64,000 nucleotides of DNA. Origin: an uncultured delta proteobacterium (lineage in GTDB: Bacteria > Myxococcota_A > Polyangia > Polyangiales > B10-G4). The DNA lies in contig CAVSGI010000018.1 in the NCBI GenBank assembly GCA_963727445.1, forward strand, positions 18,086 to 82,085. Reading direction: 5' to 3'. This document shows, in pieces, positions 44,082 through 55,191 of the stretch (position 1 is its first letter; every line of letters starts with the position of its first letter). The notes under the pieces were generated by a model. The model did no database searches. It was not told where the DNA came from and saw only the letters and a list, made by a program, of their open reading frames with translations. Made by a program: the position numbers and the translations under genes.

Positions 44082-44693
44082 TCAGGGATCCAACAGCGTC
44101 CGGAGCAGCTTCCAGTCCCGCATCTGGTCGGCCCATGGCCTCTGGATCGTCGCGCGCGCGCCCGGGTGATAGAGCGGCAGCACGAAGCGATGGTTCCAGC
44201 GGTGCACCTCTCCCACGTCCCACTTCAAGGTGAGTGTGTGCGGGGCGATCACCGCGAGCGACATCAGCGCCGTGGCGCCGAGGGTCACGATGATCGCCGG
44301 GTCGAGGGCGTCGATCAGCGATTGTACGAAATGGGTGCAGCGCTTCACTTCGGCCTTGCTCGGCTTGCGGCCCTCGCCGGCCTCCGTCTTCGGGCTGCAG
44401 AGCACCGCGTTGGTGATGAAGAGCTCGTCGCGCGAGAGGCGCGCGGCGGAGAGCAGCTTCTCGAAGGCGTCGCCGGTGCGGTCGCCCTTGAGCGGCACGC
44501 CGGTGGACGCGGCTCCGTGAAAGCCCGGCGCCTCGGCAATCACCAGACAGCGCGCGCTCTCGTCGCCGTTCGCTTCGGAAAGGACCCGCGGTCGGCCGTG
44601 CATCGTCGTGCAGCGCGTGCACGACTGGGCATCGGCGATGATGGTCGCGAGGCTGCTCCTCGCGCTACTCGTGGCCGCGCTCGTCCCTCCCAT
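44082..44693 (-). CDS. Uracil-DNA glycosylase, family 4-like
   Basis: CTRC, IAEAPG, ITNAVLCSP, VTLGATA, LYHP. Confidence 0.85.
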   Translation of the reverse strand: MGGTSAATSSARSSLATIIADAQSCTRCTTMHGRPRVLSEANGDESARCLVIAEAPGFHGAASTGVPLKGDRTGDAFEKLLSAARLSRDELFITNAVLCSPKTEAGEGRKPSKAEVKRCTHFVQSLIDALDPAIIVTLGATALMSLAVIAPHTLTLKWDVGEVHRWNHRFVLPLYHPGARATIQRPWADQMRDWKLLRTLLDP

Positions 44694-44783
44694 GGGCGAA
44701 GAAGGGTGCGCGGAGCCGGGCGGGAGCGCAACGTACTTTCTGTACTCGTTCGTACTGCCGAAAAGAGCTGCTAGGCTGCACCC

Positions 44784-46094
44784 GTGGCCGACCGACCCGA
44801 TCCACTCTCCGGCGACGAGCGCGACGCGCTGATGGGGCAGGCGCGCCCGCGCACGGGCCTCCCCATCGCGCCTCATGCCCCCCCCGCGCGACGTCATCTT
44901 CCTCTCGCTGCCGAGGCCCGCGACATCGATCGGCGCTATCGCCCGATCTACGCGGTCTGGGAGATCACCCTCGCGTGTGACCTGGCCTGCCGACATTGCG
45001 GCTCGCGCGCCGGCCACGCGCGTCCCGACGAGCTCAGCACCGAGGAGTGCCTGGACCTGGTCCGTCAGATGGCGGAGATGGGCGTCAAGGAGGTCAGCCT
45101 GATCGGCGGCGAGGCGTATCTGCGCGACGATTGGGTGGACATCATCCGCGCCGTGAAGGCGCACGGCATGACGCCGCTCATCACCTCCGGTGGACGCGGC
45201 TTCACCGAGGAGCGGGCCCGCGCCGGCGCCGAAGCGGGTCTCGCCAGCGTCAGCATCTCCATCGACGGAAACGAAGCGACCCACGACCGGCTACGCGGCG
45301 TGAAGGGAAGTCACGCGGCAGCCCTCGCCGCGCTGAAGAACCTCCGCGCCGCGGGCGTTCGCGTCTCCACCAACACGCAGATCAACCGCCTCAGCATGCC
45401 GGAGCTCGAGGACGTCCTCGACACGATCATCGAAAACGGCGGTCACAGCTGGCAGATCCAGCTCACCGTCGCGATGGGTCGCGCGGCCGACGAGCCCGAG
45501 GTCCTGCTCCAGCCCTACGACCTGCTCGAGCTCTTCCCGCTCCTCGCGGAGCTGAAGAAGAAGTGCGACGAAAACGGCGTGCGCCTGTGGCCGGGGAACA
45601 ACATCGGCTACTTCGGCCCTTACGAATCCGTGCTGAAGGGCACCATGCCCCGCGGCCACATGGCCTCCTGCGGTGCCGGGCGCGGCACTCTGGGCATCGA
45701 GGCCGACGGGACCATCAAAGGCTGCCCATCACTGACCACCACGCCCTGGGGCGGCGGGAACATCCGCGACAATTCCCTGCAGGACATCTGGGAGCGGGCC
45801 GAGCCCCTGCGCTACACCCGCGATCGCACGGTGGAGGACCTCTGGGGCTTCTGCCGCGACTGCTATTACGCAGACGAGTGTCGCGCCGGCTGCACCTGGA
45901 CCAGCCAGGTGCTCTTCGGCAAGCCGGGCAACAACCCCTACTGCCATCACCGCGCCCTCGAGCGGCAGCGCGAAGGCAAGCGCGAGCGCATCGAGCGCGT
46001 ACAGGAAGCGCCAGGGTTGCCCTTTGATCATGGAGAGTTTCGTCTCATACTCGAAGACGACCCGGCGGCCTCGAAGGCCGGCGGAGGAGGTTGA
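44784..46094 (+). CDS. Radical SAM/SPASM peptide/protein maturase, PlpX (splicease)-like
   Basis: YAVWEITLACDLACRHCGSRAG, WQIQLTVAMGRAAD, PGNNIGYFGPYE, GIEADGTIKGCPSL, CRDC..CRAGC, NNPYCHHR, PFDHGEF; extended -10 TGcTAGGCT 6 nt before the GTG. Confidence 0.88.
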   Translation: MADRPDPLSGDERDALMGQARPRTGLPIAPHAPPARRHLPLAAEARDIDRRYRPIYAVWEITLACDLACRHCGSRAGHARPDELSTEECLDLVRQMAEMGVKEVSLIGGEAYLRDDWVDIIRAVKAHGMTPLITSGGRGFTEERARAGAEAGLASVSISIDGNEATHDRLRGVKGSHAAALAALKNLRAAGVRVSTNTQINRLSMPELEDVLDTIIENGGHSWQIQLTVAMGRAADEPEVLLQPYDLLELFPLLAELKKKCDENGVRLWPGNNIGYFGPYESVLKGTMPRGHMASCGAGRGTLGIEADGTIKGCPSLTTTPWGGGNIRDNSLQDIWERAEPLRYTRDRTVEDLWGFCRDCYYADECRAGCTWTSQVLFGKPGNNPYCHHRALERQREGKRERIERVQEAPGLPFDHGEFRLILEDDPAASKAGGGG

Positions 46095-46101
46095 AAGACT
46101 C

Positions 46102-46603
46102 ATGGCCCGCTTGCTCCCTTGTCCTGGCTGCGAACGTCACGTGCGCATCACCGAAGCGCTCTGTCCCTTCTGCGGCGACGCCCTGCCGATGAGCTATCAG
46201 AGCGCCGGCCCGGCGCCGCTGCCCAGAGCGCGCCTCGGTCGCGCCGCGAAGTTCGCCTTCGGCGCGGCGGTCGCAGGCGCGCTCGCGGTGACCGGTTGTG
46301 GAGACGACGGCACCGCGGGCGACACCGGCGTCGTCGACACCGGCACCCTCGACTCCGGCGGCGCCCTCTACGGCGGAGCCCCTGACGTCGGCCCCGCGGA
46401 CACGAGCGCGGGCGACGACGAGCGCGGGCGACGGCAGCGCGGGCGACGGCAGCGCGGGCGACGGCAGCGCGGGTGACGCGTCCACCGACTCCGGCTCGAT
46501 GGCCCTCTACGGCGGTCCGCCTGTGGACTCCGGGGCGGCGGATGGCTCCTCGGGCGGCGACAGCGGCCCGGCCCCACTCTACGGCGCGCCGCCGTCGGCC
46601 TGA
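46102..46603 (+). CDS. Putative radical SAM substrate: Zn-ribbon + lipobox + low-complexity tail with three LYG motifs (+1 frameshift near 46417)
   Basis: GGAGGAGG RBS; CPGC..CPFC; LAVTGC; LYGGAP, LYGGPP, LYGAPP when the two reading frames are joined (about 166 aa). Confidence 0.75.
46405..46480 (+). repeat. Five-copy 15-bp tandem repeat AGCGCGGGCGACGGC (SAGDG)
   Basis: Directly visible; the first copy is 16 nt, which breaks the frame. Confidence 0.9.
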
Positions 46604-47529
46604 GCCTTCGCTCCGAAGCGGGCGCCCACGCCCAGGTGCAATCCCCAGATCCCGCCGTCGTTGAAAGCGAAGCCGGCGGGATCGTCGATGTTCATCGTGA
46701 AGGCGGCTCCGAAGAAGAGGGTGTCGAGCCACACCCGCCCGAAGACCTCGAGCGCCGTCTGAACCGGATCCGTCGTGGCGAAGAGCCCGCCCGTCGGGAG
46801 CCAGGCGAGGTCGAAGGCGATGCCCAGGGTGAGCAGCTCGGGCAAGACCCAGGCCGCGCCCACGCGGCCGTCCACGAAGAGATCCACGTTCGTGCCCTCG
46901 TCGCCCACCGGGATCATCGGCGCGATGGATGCCTCGACGAACGCGTCCACCGCCTGCGCGAAGCGGTGGCTCGCGCCTCCGCTCACGATGATGGAGAGGC
47001 GCTCGGGCGCCCAGAGCCAGAGCTTGGTGCCGCCATAGGTCGCCGCCGAGGTGTTGAACGCCTTGCGCATCGTGTCCTGCTCGACGTCCGGGACGTCGTT
47101 CGGGACCCAGGCCGTGGGGACCGCGACGCCCAAACCGATCACGCCGGAGGTCGCGGCCGCGCGGAAGCGGTGATGGGCGCCGGCGGTGACGTTGCCGAAG
47201 CGCAAGACGGCCCCGCCGGGATCCGAAGGGGTCGTCGTCTCGACGTAGCTCAGGGGCATCTCGAAGTGCGCGCCCCAGTCGCGGACGAAATCGTAGTGTC
47301 CGCGCACCAACGGTGAGACGCTGACGAGCTTGCCGCCTTCGGGGTGACCGACGAAGGTCGAGGTCCACAGGCTCATCTCGCCGCGGCTATCCCACAGGGG
47401 CTGACTCGGTGGCCCGTTGTCGCGATAGTTGACCGGGCCCTGGCGCTCGTTGAAGGCCTGCGCGCCCGCGACCCTCGGCAGACCGGCCGACAGGATCAGG
47501 ACGAAGGCGATGAAGGCCGCGGGCCGCAC
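46579..47529 (-). CDS. Hypothetical exported protein, probable outer-membrane beta-barrel
   Basis: Signal peptide; alternating amphipathic beta strands; GLHLGVGARF near the C-terminus. Confidence 0.55.
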   Translation of the reverse strand: MRPAAFIAFVLILSAGLPRVAGAQAFNERQGPVNYRDNGPPSQPLWDSRGEMSLWTSTFVGHPEGGKLVSVSPLVRGHYDFVRDWGAHFEMPLSYVETTTPSDPGGAVLRFGNVTAGAHHRFRAAATSGVIGLGVAVPTAWVPNDVPDVEQDTMRKAFNTSAATYGGTKLWLWAPERLSIIVSGGASHRFAQAVDAFVEASIAPMIPVGDEGTNVDLFVDGRVGAAWVLPELLTLGIAFDLAWLPTGGLFATTDPVQTALEVFGRVWLDTLFFGAAFTMNIDDPAGFAFNDGGIWGLHLGVGARFGAKAQADGGAP

Positions 47530-47545: not shown

Positions 47546-48061
47546 TCAGCCGACGATCTCGGCGAACCGCGGGTGGGCGCAGAGCTCCTCGAAGTCTCCG
47601 TCCTCCCAAGCGGCGACGGCCCAGGCGCGATCCAGGTAGACCGCCCGGCGGAGCGCGTCGAGGGCCCCGTCGCTGTCGCCGATCCGCGCCCGGGTGCAGG
47701 CGAGATTGTAGAAGGTCAGGGCCGAGGTGGGGTCGATCTCCGTGGCCCGCGAGAAGGCGCCGGCGGCGGCCTCGAGGCTCCCCATCGCGGCGAGCGCGAA
47801 GCCCGTGTGCATGTAGAGCTCGAAGCTCTCGACGCCCCGCTGGATCAGCTCGTCGGCGGTCGTGACGGCGCCGTCGTAGTCGCCGAGGTTTCTCACCTGG
47901 ACCCGCAACAGGCCCAGGGAGGCGGGCACGTGGCCGGTGCCGAAGCGGGCGTCCGAGTAGGCCATGGCCGCGCCGGCGAAGTCGCGCTCGGCTTCGAGGG
48001 CGCGGGCACAGAGCAGGGCGTTTGCGTGGTCGTCGACCACGTCGAGCTCATGGAGGTTCAT
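47546..48061 (-). CDS. TPR-repeat protein
   Basis: FYNLAC..A..ALDALRRAV..D TPR end-of-group-like motif. Confidence 0.7.
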   Translation of the reverse strand: MNLHELDVVDDHANALLCARALEAERDFAGAAMAYSDARFGTGHVPASLGLLRVQVRNLGDYDGAVTTADELIQRGVESFELYMHTGFALAAMGSLEAAAGAFSRATEIDPTSALTFYNLACTRARIGDSDGALDALRRAVYLDRAWAVAAWEDGDFEELCAHPRFAEIVG

Positions 48062-48071
48062 CTGGGGGGTG

Positions 48072-49149
48072 TTACGTCGGCTCCGCCGGCCGGCTTCCCT
48101 CCGCTGCCCACGAAAGGGGCCGCGGGCGCAGGGTCGACAAGGGGCGGGGCGGCGGCGAAGGGCGGGAGCTCCGCCGGGCGCGCCGCGCACGGGGCAGCTT
48201 CACGTCTTTCTGCGTGCCGCCGCTGAAGAAGGCGGCGATGTCCTCGCGCCGGACCTTCGAGGCGTCGGGGACGGCGCCGAGGAGGGCCCGCTCGAAAGCC
48301 TGGGCGGTCTCGAAGCGGCCGTCGACGTCCGGGTCGAGGGCGCAGGCGAGCACCGCCTCGAGGGCGCGAGGCACACCGCTGCGCACGGAGGAGAGCGGCC
48401 GCCGGTGCGGGCGGGCGACGTTCATCAGGAGCGAGTGCTCGGAGCGACCGAGGGCGTAGCGGTGCAGCGTCAGCATCTCCCACAGAACCACCGCCAGGGA
48501 GTAGATGTCGGCGCGACGATTGAGGCCGCGGCTCCGCACCTGCTCGGGCGACAGGTAGCGAACCTTGCCGCGGATGCGGTGGCCGGTGGTGTCGTAGTGG
48601 CGACCGCGCGCTTTGGCGATCCCGAAGTCGATGAGCTTCACGTCGCCCTGCTCGGACAACAGAATGTTGCCCGGGCTCACGTCGCGATGGACGAGGTTCA
48701 AGAGCTCGCCCTCTTCGTCGCGGGCCTCGTGGGCGGCGTGCAAGCCCCGCGCGGCGCGCACCACGATGGCTATTGCGATTCTCGTAGGGCAGAAAGGTGC
48801 CGGCGCGTGCGAGGGCGTCGAGGTGCTGCGCCAGGGAACGGCCGGGGACGTACTCCATCACGAGGTAGTGTCGCCCCCCATCCTCGCGGAGGGCCTCGAC
48901 GCGCGCGACGTTGGGGTGGTCGACGCGGCTGGCGAGGCGCGCCTCGTCCCGGAACATGGCGAGAAAGCCGGGGCGGTCCGCCAGATGCTCGTGCACCACC
49001 TTGATCGCGACCTGGCGCATCCCGGCGGGACAGCGGACGGCGCCCAAGTAGAGGGTGGCCATGCCCCCGGCTCCGAGGCGCGACAGTACGTGGTGTTCTC
49101 CGAGCGCTTCTCCGACGTCGACCAAGCCTCTACCTCCGAGCCCCACCAA
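48072..49149 (-). CDS. Serine/threonine protein kinase (frameshift near 48775)
   Basis: LGAGGMA, VAIK, HPNV in one frame; HRDVSPGN, DFGIAK, YLSPEQ, DIYSL in another; start uncertain. Confidence 0.85.
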
Positions 49150-49321: not shown

Positions 49322-50626
49322 ATGGTCCGCGCGGTGTTGCGCACGGCAGTCAGCATCGGCGTCTTGATAGCCGCGATCCTGGGGACGGCTGGCACGGCCC
49401 ACGCGACCCCTCAGGACATCTTCGGCTTCGGCGCACGCTCCCCCGGCCTGGGCTTCACCGGCGTGTCCTACGCCAACGACTACGAGGCGGTCTTCCTCAA
49501 CCCTTCGGGCCTCGCCCGGGCGCGGACCGACGGCCTGTGGGTGGGGCTCTCGGCGGGGACCTTCCAACTCAAGATCGACGGCAACCGCTACCCGGCGGAT
49601 TCCTCGCGCGGCATGACCATCGGCTTCACGTTGCCGCTGCCCTTCGGCGACGTGCTCGAGGATCGCCTGGTTCTGGGCGGTGGGTTCTTCACGCCCTCCG
49701 AGGTGCTCCTCGCCAGCACCATCAACGTGCCGCAGACGCCGCAGTTCAACGTCCTCGAGCGCACCCAGGCCGCCGGCATCATGGTCGGTTTCGGTTTCGA
49801 TTTTCACGACTGGATCGACGGGCTGCGCATCGGCGCCTCGGTCAGCGTCGCCGCCGACGTCATCGGCAACCTGGTCGTCTTCCTCGACGAGACCAACGCC
49901 TTCAGCTCCGTGGTGGAGACGCAGCTCGTGACCGCGTACGCGCCGATCTTCGGCGCGTCCTACGACCACGACAACTGGGGGCTCGGTCTCACCTATCGCA
50001 TGGCGCTGCAGGGGGTGATGGACCTCTCCATCTCCGCTCACGACCTGCCGATCGACATCCCCGATTTCCACGTGGGCGGGACGGTCCACTACGACCCGGC
50101 CGCCCTCGCCGCCGAGGGCTACTACCGGCCGGTCGACGATCTGCGCATCGCCCTGCAGCTGCAGACGCGCTTCTGGGACGCCTACCCCGGGCCCCAGCGC
50201 CAGGTGACGGACACCAGCGGTCAGCCTCCGAACCTCGGCTACTCCATCACGGTGTCGCCGCGGGTGAGCGGCGAGTGGACCTTCCTGCACGAGCACGGGC
50301 TGAGCGGTGACCTTCGCCTGGGCTACGCCTTCGAGCCCTCGCCGGCCGGACCGGCCCGCATGGTCGACAAGCTCGACGCCTCCGGCAACCCGACCGGTAT
50401 GCAGGTCGCCCTGCGCTACCTCGACAACCACCGCCACGTCGCGACCCTCGGCCTCGGCTTCCGCTACGAGTTCGCCGACGACATGTGGCTTCACTTCGAC
50501 ATCTTCGGCCAGCTCCACGTGCTGATGAATCGCACCCACGACATCGGCCTGACGGACGGCGGGCCGCCCATGCAGACGGGCGGGACCATGGTGGCCGGCG
50601 GCTGGGTGCTGGGGCTGACCTACTGA
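49322..50626 (+). CDS. FadL/OMPP1-family outer membrane transport protein
   Basis: Signal peptide ending AHA; FGFGARS..ANDYEAVFLNPSGL hatch motif; LRLGY; C-terminal aromatic residue. Confidence 0.75.
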   Translation: MVRAVLRTAVSIGVLIAAILGTAGTAHATPQDIFGFGARSPGLGFTGVSYANDYEAVFLNPSGLARARTDGLWVGLSAGTFQLKIDGNRYPADSSRGMTIGFTLPLPFGDVLEDRLVLGGGFFTPSEVLLASTINVPQTPQFNVLERTQAAGIMVGFGFDFHDWIDGLRIGASVSVAADVIGNLVVFLDETNAFSSVVETQLVTAYAPIFGASYDHDNWGLGLTYRMALQGVMDLSISAHDLPIDIPDFHVGGTVHYDPAALAAEGYYRPVDDLRIALQLQTRFWDAYPGPQRQVTDTSGQPPNLGYSITVSPRVSGEWTFLHEHGLSGDLRLGYAFEPSPAGPARMVDKLDASGNPTGMQVALRYLDNHRHVATLGLGFRYEFADDMWLHFDIFGQLHVLMNRTHDIGLTDGGPPMQTGGTMVAGGWVLGLTY

Positions 50627-51988
50627 TGGCGCGCTTCGCAACATCGTCGGTGCTCGCGCTCCTGTCCCTCGGCGCGCTCGCCCATCCCTCGCGTGTCCAG
50701 GCGCAGGCCACCGACAGCTTCGGCCTGAGCTCGCGGTCGACCGCCCTCGCCGGAGCGGTCACGGCGAACGTCGACGATCCGTCGGCGGGCTATTACAACC
50801 CCGCCGGCCTGGCGCGCAGCGACCACCTGCAGCTGCTGGTCGGCTACTTCTACGCCCTGCCGAGCCTGAAGGTAGACGGCGCCGACAGCAACGTCGACGA
50901 CATCAGCGGGATCGTCTTCGGGCTTCAGGTACCCGGGACCATCGGCGGCGTGAAGTTCGCCTTCGGCCTCACCGGTCACATCCCGGACGGACGGGTCAGC
51001 CGCAGCCGTTCGCTGCCGCGCCGCCAGCCGCGCTGGGAGCTCTACGACAACCGCCCCCACCGCACCATGCTCGCCGCGAACCTCGCGATCGCGCCCTTTC
51101 CCTGGCTCCGCATCGGTGGCGGCATCGGCTTTCAAGCCTACGCCGACAACAGGCTCGGCATCGGCGGTGATTCTCGGGCTCCTCGGCCGCGAGACCGAGA
51201 CCGACCTCTACCAGCAGGTGGACCTCTCCCTGAAGACCATCCGCTATCCCACGGCTGGCCTCCAGCTCCAGCCGCTGCCCTGGCTGAACTTCGGCGTGAG
51301 CTATCGGGGCGAGTACGCGCTGTCGAACGATCTGGTCGGCGAGGTCGAGGCCGACCTCCTCGCGCCGGGGCTCGACCCCTTCGCGGGCTACGTCTATCTC
51401 GAGACCGCGTCGATCAACGCCTTCGTCCCGCGCCAGCTCTCCTTCGGTGCTTCGGTGGATCCGCTGCCCGGGCTGATGGTCTCCGCCGAGCTCACCTGGG
51501 TGAACTGGGCGAACTATCGGAGCGCCATCGGCGCCTCCACGGTGCAGCTCACCATCGACGTTCCGCCCTCCCTCGACGGGCTGATCACCGTCCCCGACTC
51601 GATCACGCCGACCATGATGGTCCCGGCGCGCTTCGAGAACCGCATCGTGCCGCGGGTGGGCGTGGAGTACACGCACGAAGTCTCCGACACCTTCTCGCTG
51701 TCGGGCCGCCTGGGCTATCTCTACGAGAAGAGCCCCGCGCCGCCGCAGACAGGCTTGACCAATCTCATCGACTGCGATCGCCACGTCTTCGCCCTCGGCA
51801 TCGGCACGCGACTCGGCATGTTCCGGCCGCTCCTGCCGGGATGGGTCGACGTCGACGCGCACTTGCAGTGGTCCTACCTGCCGGACCGCGACAACGTGAA
51901 GCAGTCGCCGGCGGATCCCATCGGCGACTACCGGGCGGGCGGAGACATCTGGAACGTGGGCGCGACCATCAAGGTGGGGTTCGAATGA
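50626..51988 (+). CDS. Second FadL/OMPP1-family protein (frameshift near 51165)
   Basis: SRSTALAGA..DDPSAGYYNPAGL; RVGVEY, RLGY, C-terminal F. Confidence 0.75.
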
Positions 51989-53070: not shown

Positions 53071-53829
53071 TCAGCCCGACTCGAAGCCGCAGTGCTCTCG
53101 AACCTCGTCCTTGGTGTCGAGCTCGAGGAAGCCGGCACGGCACAGGTCGATGGCGCCGTCGATGGTGAGGGCGACGTAGGCTTCGCGATGGACGTCCCCA
53201 CGGATCGGTACGAAGCGGCGCTCGTCTCCGTGGCGTTCGAGGAGCGTGTTGATGGCCTGCACGATGGCCTGCACCGTGACCGTGGGGGTGTCGTCGAGAG
53301 CGCGGAGATCGATCTCGTCGGTGTCGAGGCTCTCGTCGTAGTCGTCGATCACCGCGACCACGTGATCGCCGGAGCGGACCACCAGCGGACCGTCGTCGCT
53401 GCCGATGCGCTCGAGGTTGCAGGCCTCGAGGGAGGGGCAGAGCGCCGCCAGGCGCTGGCAGATGCCGTTGGCACCGATGCGCTGCGTATCCACCATCAGG
53501 AAGAATCGGTCGGAGTAGCGACGGCGCTCGGAGGCGGCGTCGTCACCGTTGGCGTCGTAGTACGCGTCGAGCATGTCGAGATGTCGGCCGGACTCGCTCA
53601 CCGAATCGGACGCGCCGAGAATGCGCCGCAGCTCGTCGCCATCGAGCTCGGAGAGAAGCCCCACTGCGCTCATCTCGTTCACGAAGCGGAGATCTTCGGG
53701 CGCAGGTGCGGGTGCGGGTGCCTTTTCGACGAGGCCGCTCGCGCCGCCTTCGGGGGCGGCTTCGGCCATGGGGGGCGGTGGCCGCGACGGAGAGCCGTCG
53801 CTGTCCGGCTTGGGGGGTATGTACGACAT
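53071..53829 (-). CDS. Hypothetical protein
   Basis: Protein-like, acidic ORF; no recognisable motif. Confidence 0.55.
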   Translation of the reverse strand: MSYIPPKPDSDGSPSRPPPPMAEAAPEGGASGLVEKAPAPAPAPEDLRFVNEMSAVGLLSELDGDELRRILGASDSVSESGRHLDMLDAYYDANGDDAASERRRYSDRFFLMVDTQRIGANGICQRLAALCPSLEACNLERIGSDDGPLVVRSGDHVVAVIDDYDESLDTDEIDLRALDDTPTVTVQAIVQAINTLLERHGDERRFVPIRGDVHREAYVALTIDGAIDLCRAGFLELDTKDEVREHCGFESG

Positions 53830-53989
53830 CGGTGTTCTCGAGTCACCCGCGTGCGGGGCGGAGACAGTGGCCCGAAAACGGCGAGGGCTCAACCCCTCCG
53901 CCGCCTTTCTCATTGACAGGCCCCCCCCTCTGACTGCAGGGAGAAACCGCCCCCTTCTTGGGGCAATTTCCACCCAGGATCCTCCCGAC

Positions 53990-55191
53990 ATGGCCTTCCG
54001 CATCCTCCTCCTCGAAAGCATTCATTCCGTCGCCCGCCAGAGCCTCGCCGACGCGGGGTTCGAGGTGGAGTTGATGGATGGGGCCCTGAACGAGCAGGAG
54101 CTGGCCGAGCGGCTCGAGGGGGTCCACGCGGTGGGGATCCGCAGCAAGACCCAGATGACCCGCAAGGTGCTCGAGGCGGCCGACGAGCTGATGGTGGTGG
54201 GCGCCTTCTGCATCGGAACCAACCAGATCGATTTGGAGTTCGCGAGCCATCGCGGTGTCGCGGTGTTCAACGCGCCCTTCAGCAATACGCGCAGCGTGGC
54301 GGAGCTGGTGCTCTCCGAGATCGTGATGCTCTCGCGCAACCTGGGCGACCGCAGCCGCGAGATGCACGAGGGAAAGTGGCGCAAGAGCGCGGCTGGCGCG
54401 CGCGAGGTCCGCGGCAAGACGCTCGGCATCGTGGGCTACGGCCACATCGGCAGTCAGGTCGGCGTGCTCGCCGAGGCTTTCGGGATGCGCGTGATCTTCC
54501 ACGACATCGTCAGCAAGCTGCCCATCGGCAACACCCAGCAGGCGTCGTCGCTGGAGCAGGTGCTCGAGGAGTCGGACTTCGTCACCCTCCACGTGCCGGC
54601 GACCGCGCAGACCCACGAGATGATCGGCGAGGCCGAGATCGCGCGCATGAAGAAGGGCGCGTACCTGCTCAACCTCAGCCGCGGCACGGTGGTGGTGATC
54701 CCCGCGCTGGCCGCTGCGCTCTCGAGCGGCCACGTCGCAGGCGCGGCCATCGACGTCTTTCCGCTCGAGCCGAAGAAGAACATCTCCGACGACTTCGTCT
54801 CGGAGCTGCGTGGCCAGGGCAACGTGGTGCTCACGCCGCACATCGGCGGCTCCACCATGGAAGCGCAGGAGAACATCGGCCGCGAGGTGAGCGCGTCGCT
54901 CGCCAAGTACTTCATCGACGGTGGCACCACGGGCTCGGTGAACTTCCCCACCTCGAGCTGCCCCGAACGCCGGGTCGCCACCGCATCGCCAACGTCCACC
55001 GCAACATCCCCGGCGTGCTGAGCGAGCTGAACGGCATCGTGTCCGCCGCGGACGCCAACGTCACCGCTCAGGTCCTCGGCACCCAGGGCGAGCTCGGCTA
55101 TCTGATCATGGACTTCGACGGCGCGGTCGCCGAGCAGGTCAGCGAGCAGATGAACGGGCTCGACACGACGATCTTCGCGCGCGCCCTGTAG
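53990..55191 (+). CDS. serA: D-3-phosphoglycerate dehydrogenase, E. coli-type with ACT domain (1-nt deletion in C-run 54946-49)
   Basis: GIRSKT, FCIGTNQ, NAPFSNTRSVAE, GYGHIG, TPHIGGST, HRNIPGVL. Confidence 0.92.

Follow-up and report, generated by a model that had tools for sequence, protein, structure and literature searches.

The gene directly downstream of a splicease-like radical SAM enzyme in an uncultured delta proteobacterium encodes a precursor that, as judged from its sequence, starts with a front end of 66 residues in which a zinc-ribbon-type domain precedes a predicted lipoprotein signal peptide. The explanation that we favour, at a probability somewhat above even, is that the ribbon docks on or activates the enzyme, that LYG sites are rewritten to keto-amides and that lipoprotein processing then cuts the front end off. 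A wider proposal, which we place a little below an even chance, is that the ribbon would act as a portable switch that turns spliceases on: in GDL systems it would belong to the enzyme, and in myxobacteria it would have moved to the signals of pre-lipoproteins, where signal peptidase II would discard it and leave membrane-anchored lipoproteins with several reactive keto-amides.

The enzyme and precursor genes

The window, which is the whole 64,000-nucleotide stretch of DNA that was analysed, contains the following features of the pair.

44784..46094, + strand: splicease-group (PlpX-like) radical SAM/SPASM enzyme, 436 aa (TIGR04103, TIGR03913, Pfam Radical_SAM and SPASM)
46083..46090, + strand: Shine-Dalgarno-like GGAGGAGG within the final codons of the enzyme gene; the precursor ATG follows after 11 nt (sequence)
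46102..46603, + strand: precursor gene, comprising ribbon, linker, signal helix, lipobox and an acidic low-complexity tail with three LYG (sequence)
46108..46185, + strand: zinc-ribbon-type domain, C7/C10/C21/C24, homologous to the C-terminal ribbon of TIGR03913 enzymes; metal binding predicted
46231..46296, + strand: conserved helix start R-L-G-R-A-A-x-F-A-F-G-A, then a predicted type II signal peptide h-region (AlphaFold helix, conservation, hydrophobicity)
46288..46299, + strand: lipobox V63-T64-G65-C66, with Cys66 as the predicted lipidated +1 residue and Gly at +2
46366..46374, + strand: first candidate splice site, L89-Y90-G91 (LYGGAP), before the frame break
46414..46429, + strand: frameshift, a 16-nt unit amid 15-nt repeats (unit lengths 15, 16, 15, 15, 15, 15)
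46505..46513, + strand: second candidate splice site (LYGGPP), read in the shifted frame
46577..46585, + strand: third candidate splice site (LYGAPP), shortly before the stop at 46601-46603

The enzyme gene starts with GTG at 44784, with an in-frame ATG at 44832, and its product carries CxxxCxxC at residue 65 and SPASM cysteines at about 296-387, without a ribbon of its own. It scores 506.5 bits against TIGR04103 (nif11-class maturase 3), which we take to be the same family as IPR026482, and 500.4 bits against TIGR03913 (GDL-associated), reaching neither cut-off (725 and 591.75, respectively), while the next-best family gives 155.8 bits. Only positions 14-390 of the 477-position TIGR03913 model are aligned, the C-terminal extension being absent. 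The enzyme is also 54% identical to a Nostoc protein annotated as nif11-class maturase 3 and, by these sequence comparisons, belongs with the spliceases; PlpX itself is placed in IPR026482 in the available text of PMC11002830. Structure searches found no solved splicease structure.

The precursor gene begins at ATG 46102, after a gap of 7 nt. On translation its cysteines are spaced C7-x2-C10-x10-C21-x2-C24 (CxxC-x10-CxxC), a Pro-rich linker separates the ribbon from R44-L-G-R47, and residues 48-65 form an Ala/Gly/Phe-rich stretch, with one Lys at 50, that ends in V63-T-G-C66 (Cys66 codon at 46297-46299). The unusually long n-region with two CxxC motifs that had been described ahead of the hydrophobic stretch and lipobox is therefore present, at 47 residues. 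Beyond Cys66 lies an acidic tail of Asp, Gly, Ser, Ala and Thr. The AlphaFold model gives residues 1-30 a pLDDT of 88-93 and places a helix at 47-63. Profile scans showed that neither Pfam nor NCBIfam names the precursor family, and an ESM Atlas search with the precursor returned unnamed Myxococcota clusters only.

Both flanks of the pair are on the opposite strand and consist of a family-4 uracil-DNA glycosylase and a 316-aa ORF without an assigned family; as the original prediction had stated, no PqqD/RRE-like gene, peptidase or ABC exporter gene is adjacent. No promoter-like site was found in 44600-46800. The precursor had no match to Nif11/NHLP leaders in NCBIfam and Pfam scans, nor had the window neighbours scanned against Pfam any match to DUF1843. 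Because PlpY is not a true RRE fold, according to the available text of PMC12710340, PlpY and PqqD were both searched for. A single PqqD in the genome exceeds the cut-off; it belongs to a separate operon with a different radical SAM/SPASM gene (L008; G000 contig C6, ~335-338 kb), which is unrelated to the splicease loci. The predicted lack of a PlpY homolog held genome-wide: a PlpY-positioned Nostoc protein, Y-like by position only, found nothing better than E 2.3 in this 86% complete genome. Such an absence is expected, since all non-cyanobacterial spliceotide pathways are described in the available text of PMC11414181 as lacking Y, with parts of the leader standing in; the same text shows activation of the enzyme by PlpY, by a helix of the leader and by a copy fused to the enzyme.

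The ribbon and its counterpart on GDL-type enzymes

The ribbon was originally suggested to be the element by which the enzyme recognizes its substrate, and sequence comparison agrees with a recognition or activation role. Because a homologous ribbon is fixed at the C-terminus of GDL spliceases and is absent from the myxobacterial enzymes, the ribbon is likely a docking or activating module for the splicease. This assignment is made mainly because its placement, on the enzyme in GDL systems and on the substrate here, beside the separate Y of type I, parallels the movable activator described in the available text of PMC11414181.

Profile-profile comparison of the precursor ribbon with the C-terminus of GDL enzymes gave an HH probability of 96.8% (E 2.9e-10) over 29 columns, which cover the ribbon only, and identical 10-residue spacing (125/141 and 23/23). 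The precursor ribbon profile scores 17-40 bits on all 23 GDL-type enzymes, 21 of which were retrieved using the ribbon region as query, versus at most 4.7 bits on 93 trimmed myxobacterial enzymes and 0.1 bits on the type I enzyme. A ribbon is present in only 2 of 108 untrimmed enzyme frames, both frameshift-like. A reciprocal profile made from enzyme tails only ranks the eight precursors of the window's genome 1-8 among 112,637 ORFs (28.2-13.0 bits; next ORF 12.0), 248 of which have the four-cysteine motif. The curated TIGR03913 model, which does not depend on our choice of sequences, matches four precursor ribbons weakly at its positions 417-460 (E 5e-4 to 1.4), and an ESM Atlas search with the GDL tail gave generic ribbon clusters only, all sub-0.9. 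Generic ribbons in unrelated multi-ribbon proteins can reach 17-24 bits (19 of 112 repeats score at least 17 and 2 of 112 at least 23), which overlaps the three weakest GDL-enzyme scores; the ribbon homology thus rests partly on context, because generic repeats of the same spacing score similarly. L026 and L071 seem to encode fusions of ribbon and enzyme, and the window's genome a fusion of Ku and precursor; these cases resemble frameshift artefacts and were left out of the counts.

GDL-type enzymes of Azospirillum and Aureibacter possess the same kind of ribbon plus a helix at the C-terminus, and in the Tropicibacter enzyme the ribbon is fused at the N-terminus instead. A model of a natural enzyme-ribbon fusion (pTM 0.88; ribbon and helix pLDDT 94-97) is compatible with a docked ribbon, its scores giving no contacts. 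Against Pfam the precursor ribbon has sub-threshold matches only (DZR_2, E 0.008), and the nearest folds are NZF/RanBP2 fingers, at ~1 A rmsd over 26-27 residues with E-values of 0.19 or worse. These zinc fingers share the CxxC-x10-CxxC spacing and are protein-binding modules; the likeness is one of fold, and kinship is putative. The metal may be zinc or iron. Residues kept in the family are R12, H13, E18, P22 and F23.

The helix start matches the ribbon in conservation (0.66 for residues 44-53 and 0.60 for the ribbon, versus 0.26 for the linker), half-ribbon precursors occur, and GDL enzymes have a long helix after the ribbon. These observations would suit an alternative that we consider unlikely, in which the activator is the conserved helix start (44-55), like the RhaA leader helix, and the ribbon is accessory or structural, lipoprotein export being retained. 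A helix does serve as activator in the sole characterised binary system, and according to the available text of PMC11414181 PlpY can be aligned with the leaders of types II, III and V. However, the ribbon alone is common to the enzyme-fused form, the helices align neither with each other nor with the PlpY-like family, and R12, H13, P22 and F23 are kept in at least 90% of rows, beyond what holding a metal needs. A likeness seen by eye among the precursor helix, the GDL helix and the PlpY-like protein was dropped when profile comparison failed (probability ~0.1). At two loci (L145 and L150), distant enzymes lie beside YG lipoproteins whose head keeps a single CxxxC pair.

The predicted lipoprotein signal

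The reading of the precursor as a lipoprotein, also part of the original prediction, is backed at the sequence level by lipobox statistics and by the genome's two LspA loci and four Lgt loci. Two sets of ribbon-led ORFs were collected independently, both with profiles spanning the hydrophobic part, and their Cys and lipobox counts are therefore biased upward. Conservation of Cys66 was borne out in each. Among the ribbon-led ORFs of the fetched loci, a Cys lies 18-46 residues past the ribbon in 149 of 151, and the lipobox pattern, which we take to be PROSITE PS00013-like, occurs in 118 of 146 unique ORFs versus 646 of 19,351 internal Cys of the genome (3%). In the second set (134 single-domain library matches), the Cys is found in 132 and the pattern in 117. 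The window precursor itself fits the L-[AST]-[GA]-C lipobox given in the available text of PMC3222651, save for Val at -3.

Within the family, Ala or Gly occupies -1 of the Cys in 140/149 ribbon-led ORFs, the 12 positions before it are uncharged in 135/149, and +2 is Gly in 86/149, with Lys not among the ten commonest +2 residues; by the rules given in the available text of PMC3222651, sorting to the outer membrane is the default guess. The M. xanthus +7 Ala matrix-sorting signal from the same text is present in the window protein but in only 16 of 144 members, and thus is not a family feature. Basic residues, an uncharged h-region and a lipobox Cys are all found; the short n-region of a lipoprotein is not. 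The h-region maximum (Kyte-Doolittle) is 1.93 in the family versus 2.42 in 385 ordinary lipoprotein-like starts, and the Cys lies at a median position of 62 versus 19 in these controls, whose length was limited by the search pattern. Tat export was rejected, the S/T-R-R-x-hydrophobic motif occurring in 0/146 and any RR in 31/146.

An h-region markedly weaker than that of ordinary lipoproteins, together with the 28 of 146 ORFs that miss the lipobox pattern, leads to a second alternative, that the hydrophobic stretch is an enzyme-binding leader only, with the protein remaining in the cytoplasm or inner membrane or its peptides being freed by an unlinked protease. A folded n-region of 47 residues is likewise atypical. 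We regard this alternative as quite improbable given the near-invariant Cys in both sets and the residues before it described above. In addition, several full-length relatives have weak, sub-threshold NCBIfam lipoprotein matches across the signal segment, and the precursor tails resemble those of ordinary lipoproteins in the window's genome.

On the preferred lipoprotein reading, Cys66 would be lipidated and signal peptidase II would cleave before it. On general grounds, the weak h-region and the missing Tat motif would point to export through Sec after translation, leaving a cytoplasmic enzyme time to do its work. The suggestion that the ribbon itself delays export fares less well: the weak h-region and the lack of a Tat motif are circumstantially in its favour, but a ribbon in a cytoplasmic n-region need not block Sec.

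Candidate splice sites and the frameshift

Tail tyrosines in the family are mostly followed by Gly (374 of 421 in complete tails, mostly as YGAP or YGGP; 287 of 309 in the second set). Spliceases excise tyramine at XYG, as described in the available text of PMC9811515 and PMC11414181, and by analogy the XYG sites of the precursor would lose tyramine (C8H9NO) to give an alpha-keto-beta-amide.

As assembled, the precursor ends at a stop at 46476 after 124 aa; if an extra base is an error, the product has ~166 aa and, on translation, the stop codon of the shifted frame is 46601-46603. High third-position G+C moves to another frame at 46414-46429, and the frame after the break has a coding-type G+C pattern. 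The 1-nt frameshift is probably an assembly error, because SerA and a kinase within 10 kb of the precursor are also split and because a same-genus genome holds an intact 144-aa counterpart (locus L129) with the same gene downstream. A kinase and SerA (Pfam-confirmed) and a probably FadL-like gene are each split between frames at window positions 48058-49149, 50485-51988 and 53573-55191, which points to indel errors in the assembly.

Only 1 of 41 genes in a cross-species comparison gave matches in two frames, and neither public contigs nor three small-share DNA sequencing runs spanned the frameshift. The enzyme, as noted above, is under both family cut-offs. A third alternative, to which we assign a probability slightly lower still than the second, is that the enzyme performs some other tyrosine-centred radical chemistry than tyramine excision, or that this copy of the precursor has decayed with a real frameshift; the literature searched yielded no characterised myxobacterial member. 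The identity to the type I family member, the almost pure YG signature, the split genes nearby with the intact counterpart, and the position of the first LYG ahead of the frame break all argue against it.

Several tails depart from this pattern. Two ribbon-led lipoproteins beside one enzyme carry Asp-Tyr-Ser rather than X-Tyr-Gly (L177:1199-2021), and one distant radical SAM frame closes with Cys-rich repeats that each hold a YG motif, as if it were an enzyme-substrate fusion (L157:1947-3722). Two orphan paralogues have tails that are Pro-rich rather than Asp/Gly-rich (L003:4688-5170 and L005:5109-5471), one of which continues in frame from an apparently frameshifted Ku gene.

Proposed mechanism and its implications

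Sequence comparison shows that the C-terminal ribbon of GDL spliceases is missing from the window enzyme and sits on its substrates instead. In the cytoplasm the ribbon, probably together with the conserved helix start, would bind the enzyme and act in trans like PlpY or the RhaA leader, so that one enzyme could serve every ribbon-tagged protein of the genome. Tyramine would then be cut out at each XYG, as in PlpX chemistry. The weakly hydrophobic signal would take the unfolded tail through Sec after translation, Lgt would lipidate Cys66 and LspA would remove residues 1-65; with this processing no dedicated peptidase or exporter would be needed. More speculatively, the product would be a disordered stalk that is anchored in the envelope and bears several keto-amide groups, plausibly acting as protease inhibitors, a role borrowed from other spliceotides as described in the available text of PMC9811515.

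If the wider proposal is correct, the ribbon would be a metal finger by which RiPP enzymes recognize their substrates, a type of element other than RREs and helical leaders, and it would license backbone rewriting of a genome-wide set of pre-lipoproteins. The pathway would be a RiPP pathway with a membrane lipoprotein as its product, matured by housekeeping machinery, and a large unannotated myxobacterial family would gain a function. GDL-type enzymes would be predicted to be natural self-activated spliceases, and a 25-residue tag could direct installation of beta-amino acids in proteins.

Comparison with known systems

Binary spliceases are already known, as is the lack of PlpY in non-cyanobacterial spliceases, according to the available text of the sources cited here. 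The type I systems PlpX/PlpY/PlpA and PcpXYA (TIGR04103) have a closely related radical SAM/SPASM enzyme and the same XYG target; unlike them, the window system is without a Y protein and without a Nif11/NHLP leader, and its substrates are predicted lipoproteins headed by a ribbon, most of which have 1-6 sites. The binary type II system RhaX/RhaA, as described in the available text of PMC11414181 and PMC11626197, likewise has two components and no Y, the front of the precursor supplying the activator; there, however, the activator is a helix and the leader is removed at GG, whereas here it is likely the ribbon and the predicted cut is at the lipobox. GDL maturases with DUF1843 peptides (TIGR03913) share an enzyme core of ~50% identity and a ribbon with the same cysteine spacing, but theirs is fused to the enzyme C-terminus, and their substrates (L125, L127) are helical peptides of 56-64 aa that have no signal peptide and carry the Tyr site close to the N-terminus.

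The TIGR04133 system (rSAM_w_lipo) offers a curated example of a lipoprotein as partner of a radical SAM/SPASM enzyme, and we take this partner to be the TIGR04134 lipoprotein of Bacteroidota. The window enzyme is distant from TIGR04133 (154 bits; cut-off 425), TIGR04134 had no match on 11 precursors, and we know of no ribbon on TIGR04134 partners.

No description of the precursor family was found in the literature searched, which did not cover the tables of Scott et al. 2022, and the available text of PMC11626197, PMC10885120, PMC10533398 and PMC12114271 does not mention it. Scott et al. 2022 may already list myxobacterial enzyme-precursor pairs; 27 enzyme-substrate pairs from a survey of 189 genera were confirmed there, as reported in the available text of PMC10849128.

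Distribution in this genome and across Myxococcota

The window's genome holds seven close paralogues of the precursor including the window copy, the other six being at other sites with no splicease within ~5 kb. A second splicease-like enzyme, on contig C20 of the same genome, has a ribbon-led lipoprotein upstream (L007:5326-6970). Seven paralogues and a second enzyme-substrate pair indicate, at the level of sequence, that this is a dispersed network and not one isolated two-gene unit. The minimal two-gene pathway that had been envisaged falls short of this, since six of the seven paralogues are orphans elsewhere and a second enzyme exists. In the contig C20 partner Tyr-Gly directly follows the lipobox Cys, which thereby becomes the X of the Cys-Tyr-Gly site; the CYG type recurs at about a dozen distant loci.

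A ribbon precursor lies beside the enzyme in 71 of the 80 best among 568 related enzyme loci, almost all of which are titled Myxococcota or unclassified proteobacteria. Where the sequence continues for 500 nt or more downstream, this is so in 56 of 62 loci, and arrays hold up to five precursors. Beyond enzyme and precursor, no family recurs in more than eight of these 80 loci. Of the 235 neighbour ORFs with a length of 120 aa or more, 112 were scanned against Pfam and included no PqqD and no C39 peptidase; they contained one ABC-2 permease, one M90 peptidase domain and otherwise scattered housekeeping genes. A further 40, more distant enzyme loci were picked by hand, 20 from genomes without a precursor match and 20 others. 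These show a ribbon-led neighbour in 26 by profile and in three more by eye; two have a neighbour with a single cysteine pair, and nine are without such a neighbour within ~2 kb.

Across 251 genomes of the phylum, the precursor profile matches 50 and the enzyme 64. The enzyme is found in 41 of the 50 precursor-positive genomes, and in 26 of 26 at E<=1e-5, compared to 64 of 251 overall, although related genomes are not independent. A search at E<=1e-10 gave 1,893 cluster representatives, a count that includes some generic multi-ribbon proteins. In a quick tree the Nostoc nif11-class maturase 3 (type I) and the GDL enzymes fall among the Myxococcota enzymes; this tree, of 48 rows from a subset of the enzymes, with long outgroups, one GDL row skipped and an unreliable root, gives support to no direction of transfer.

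At five loci (L031, L050, L051, L084 and L096) the precursor array is flanked by two splicease-like genes. The Tropicibacter plasmid NZ_CP124618.1 carries a splicease-like enzyme with an N-terminal ribbon and a remnant signal-like segment (L126:2701-4323), which nests among Myxococcota enzymes in the tree; this locus has no obvious small precursor, and several of its neighbours have single YG motifs.
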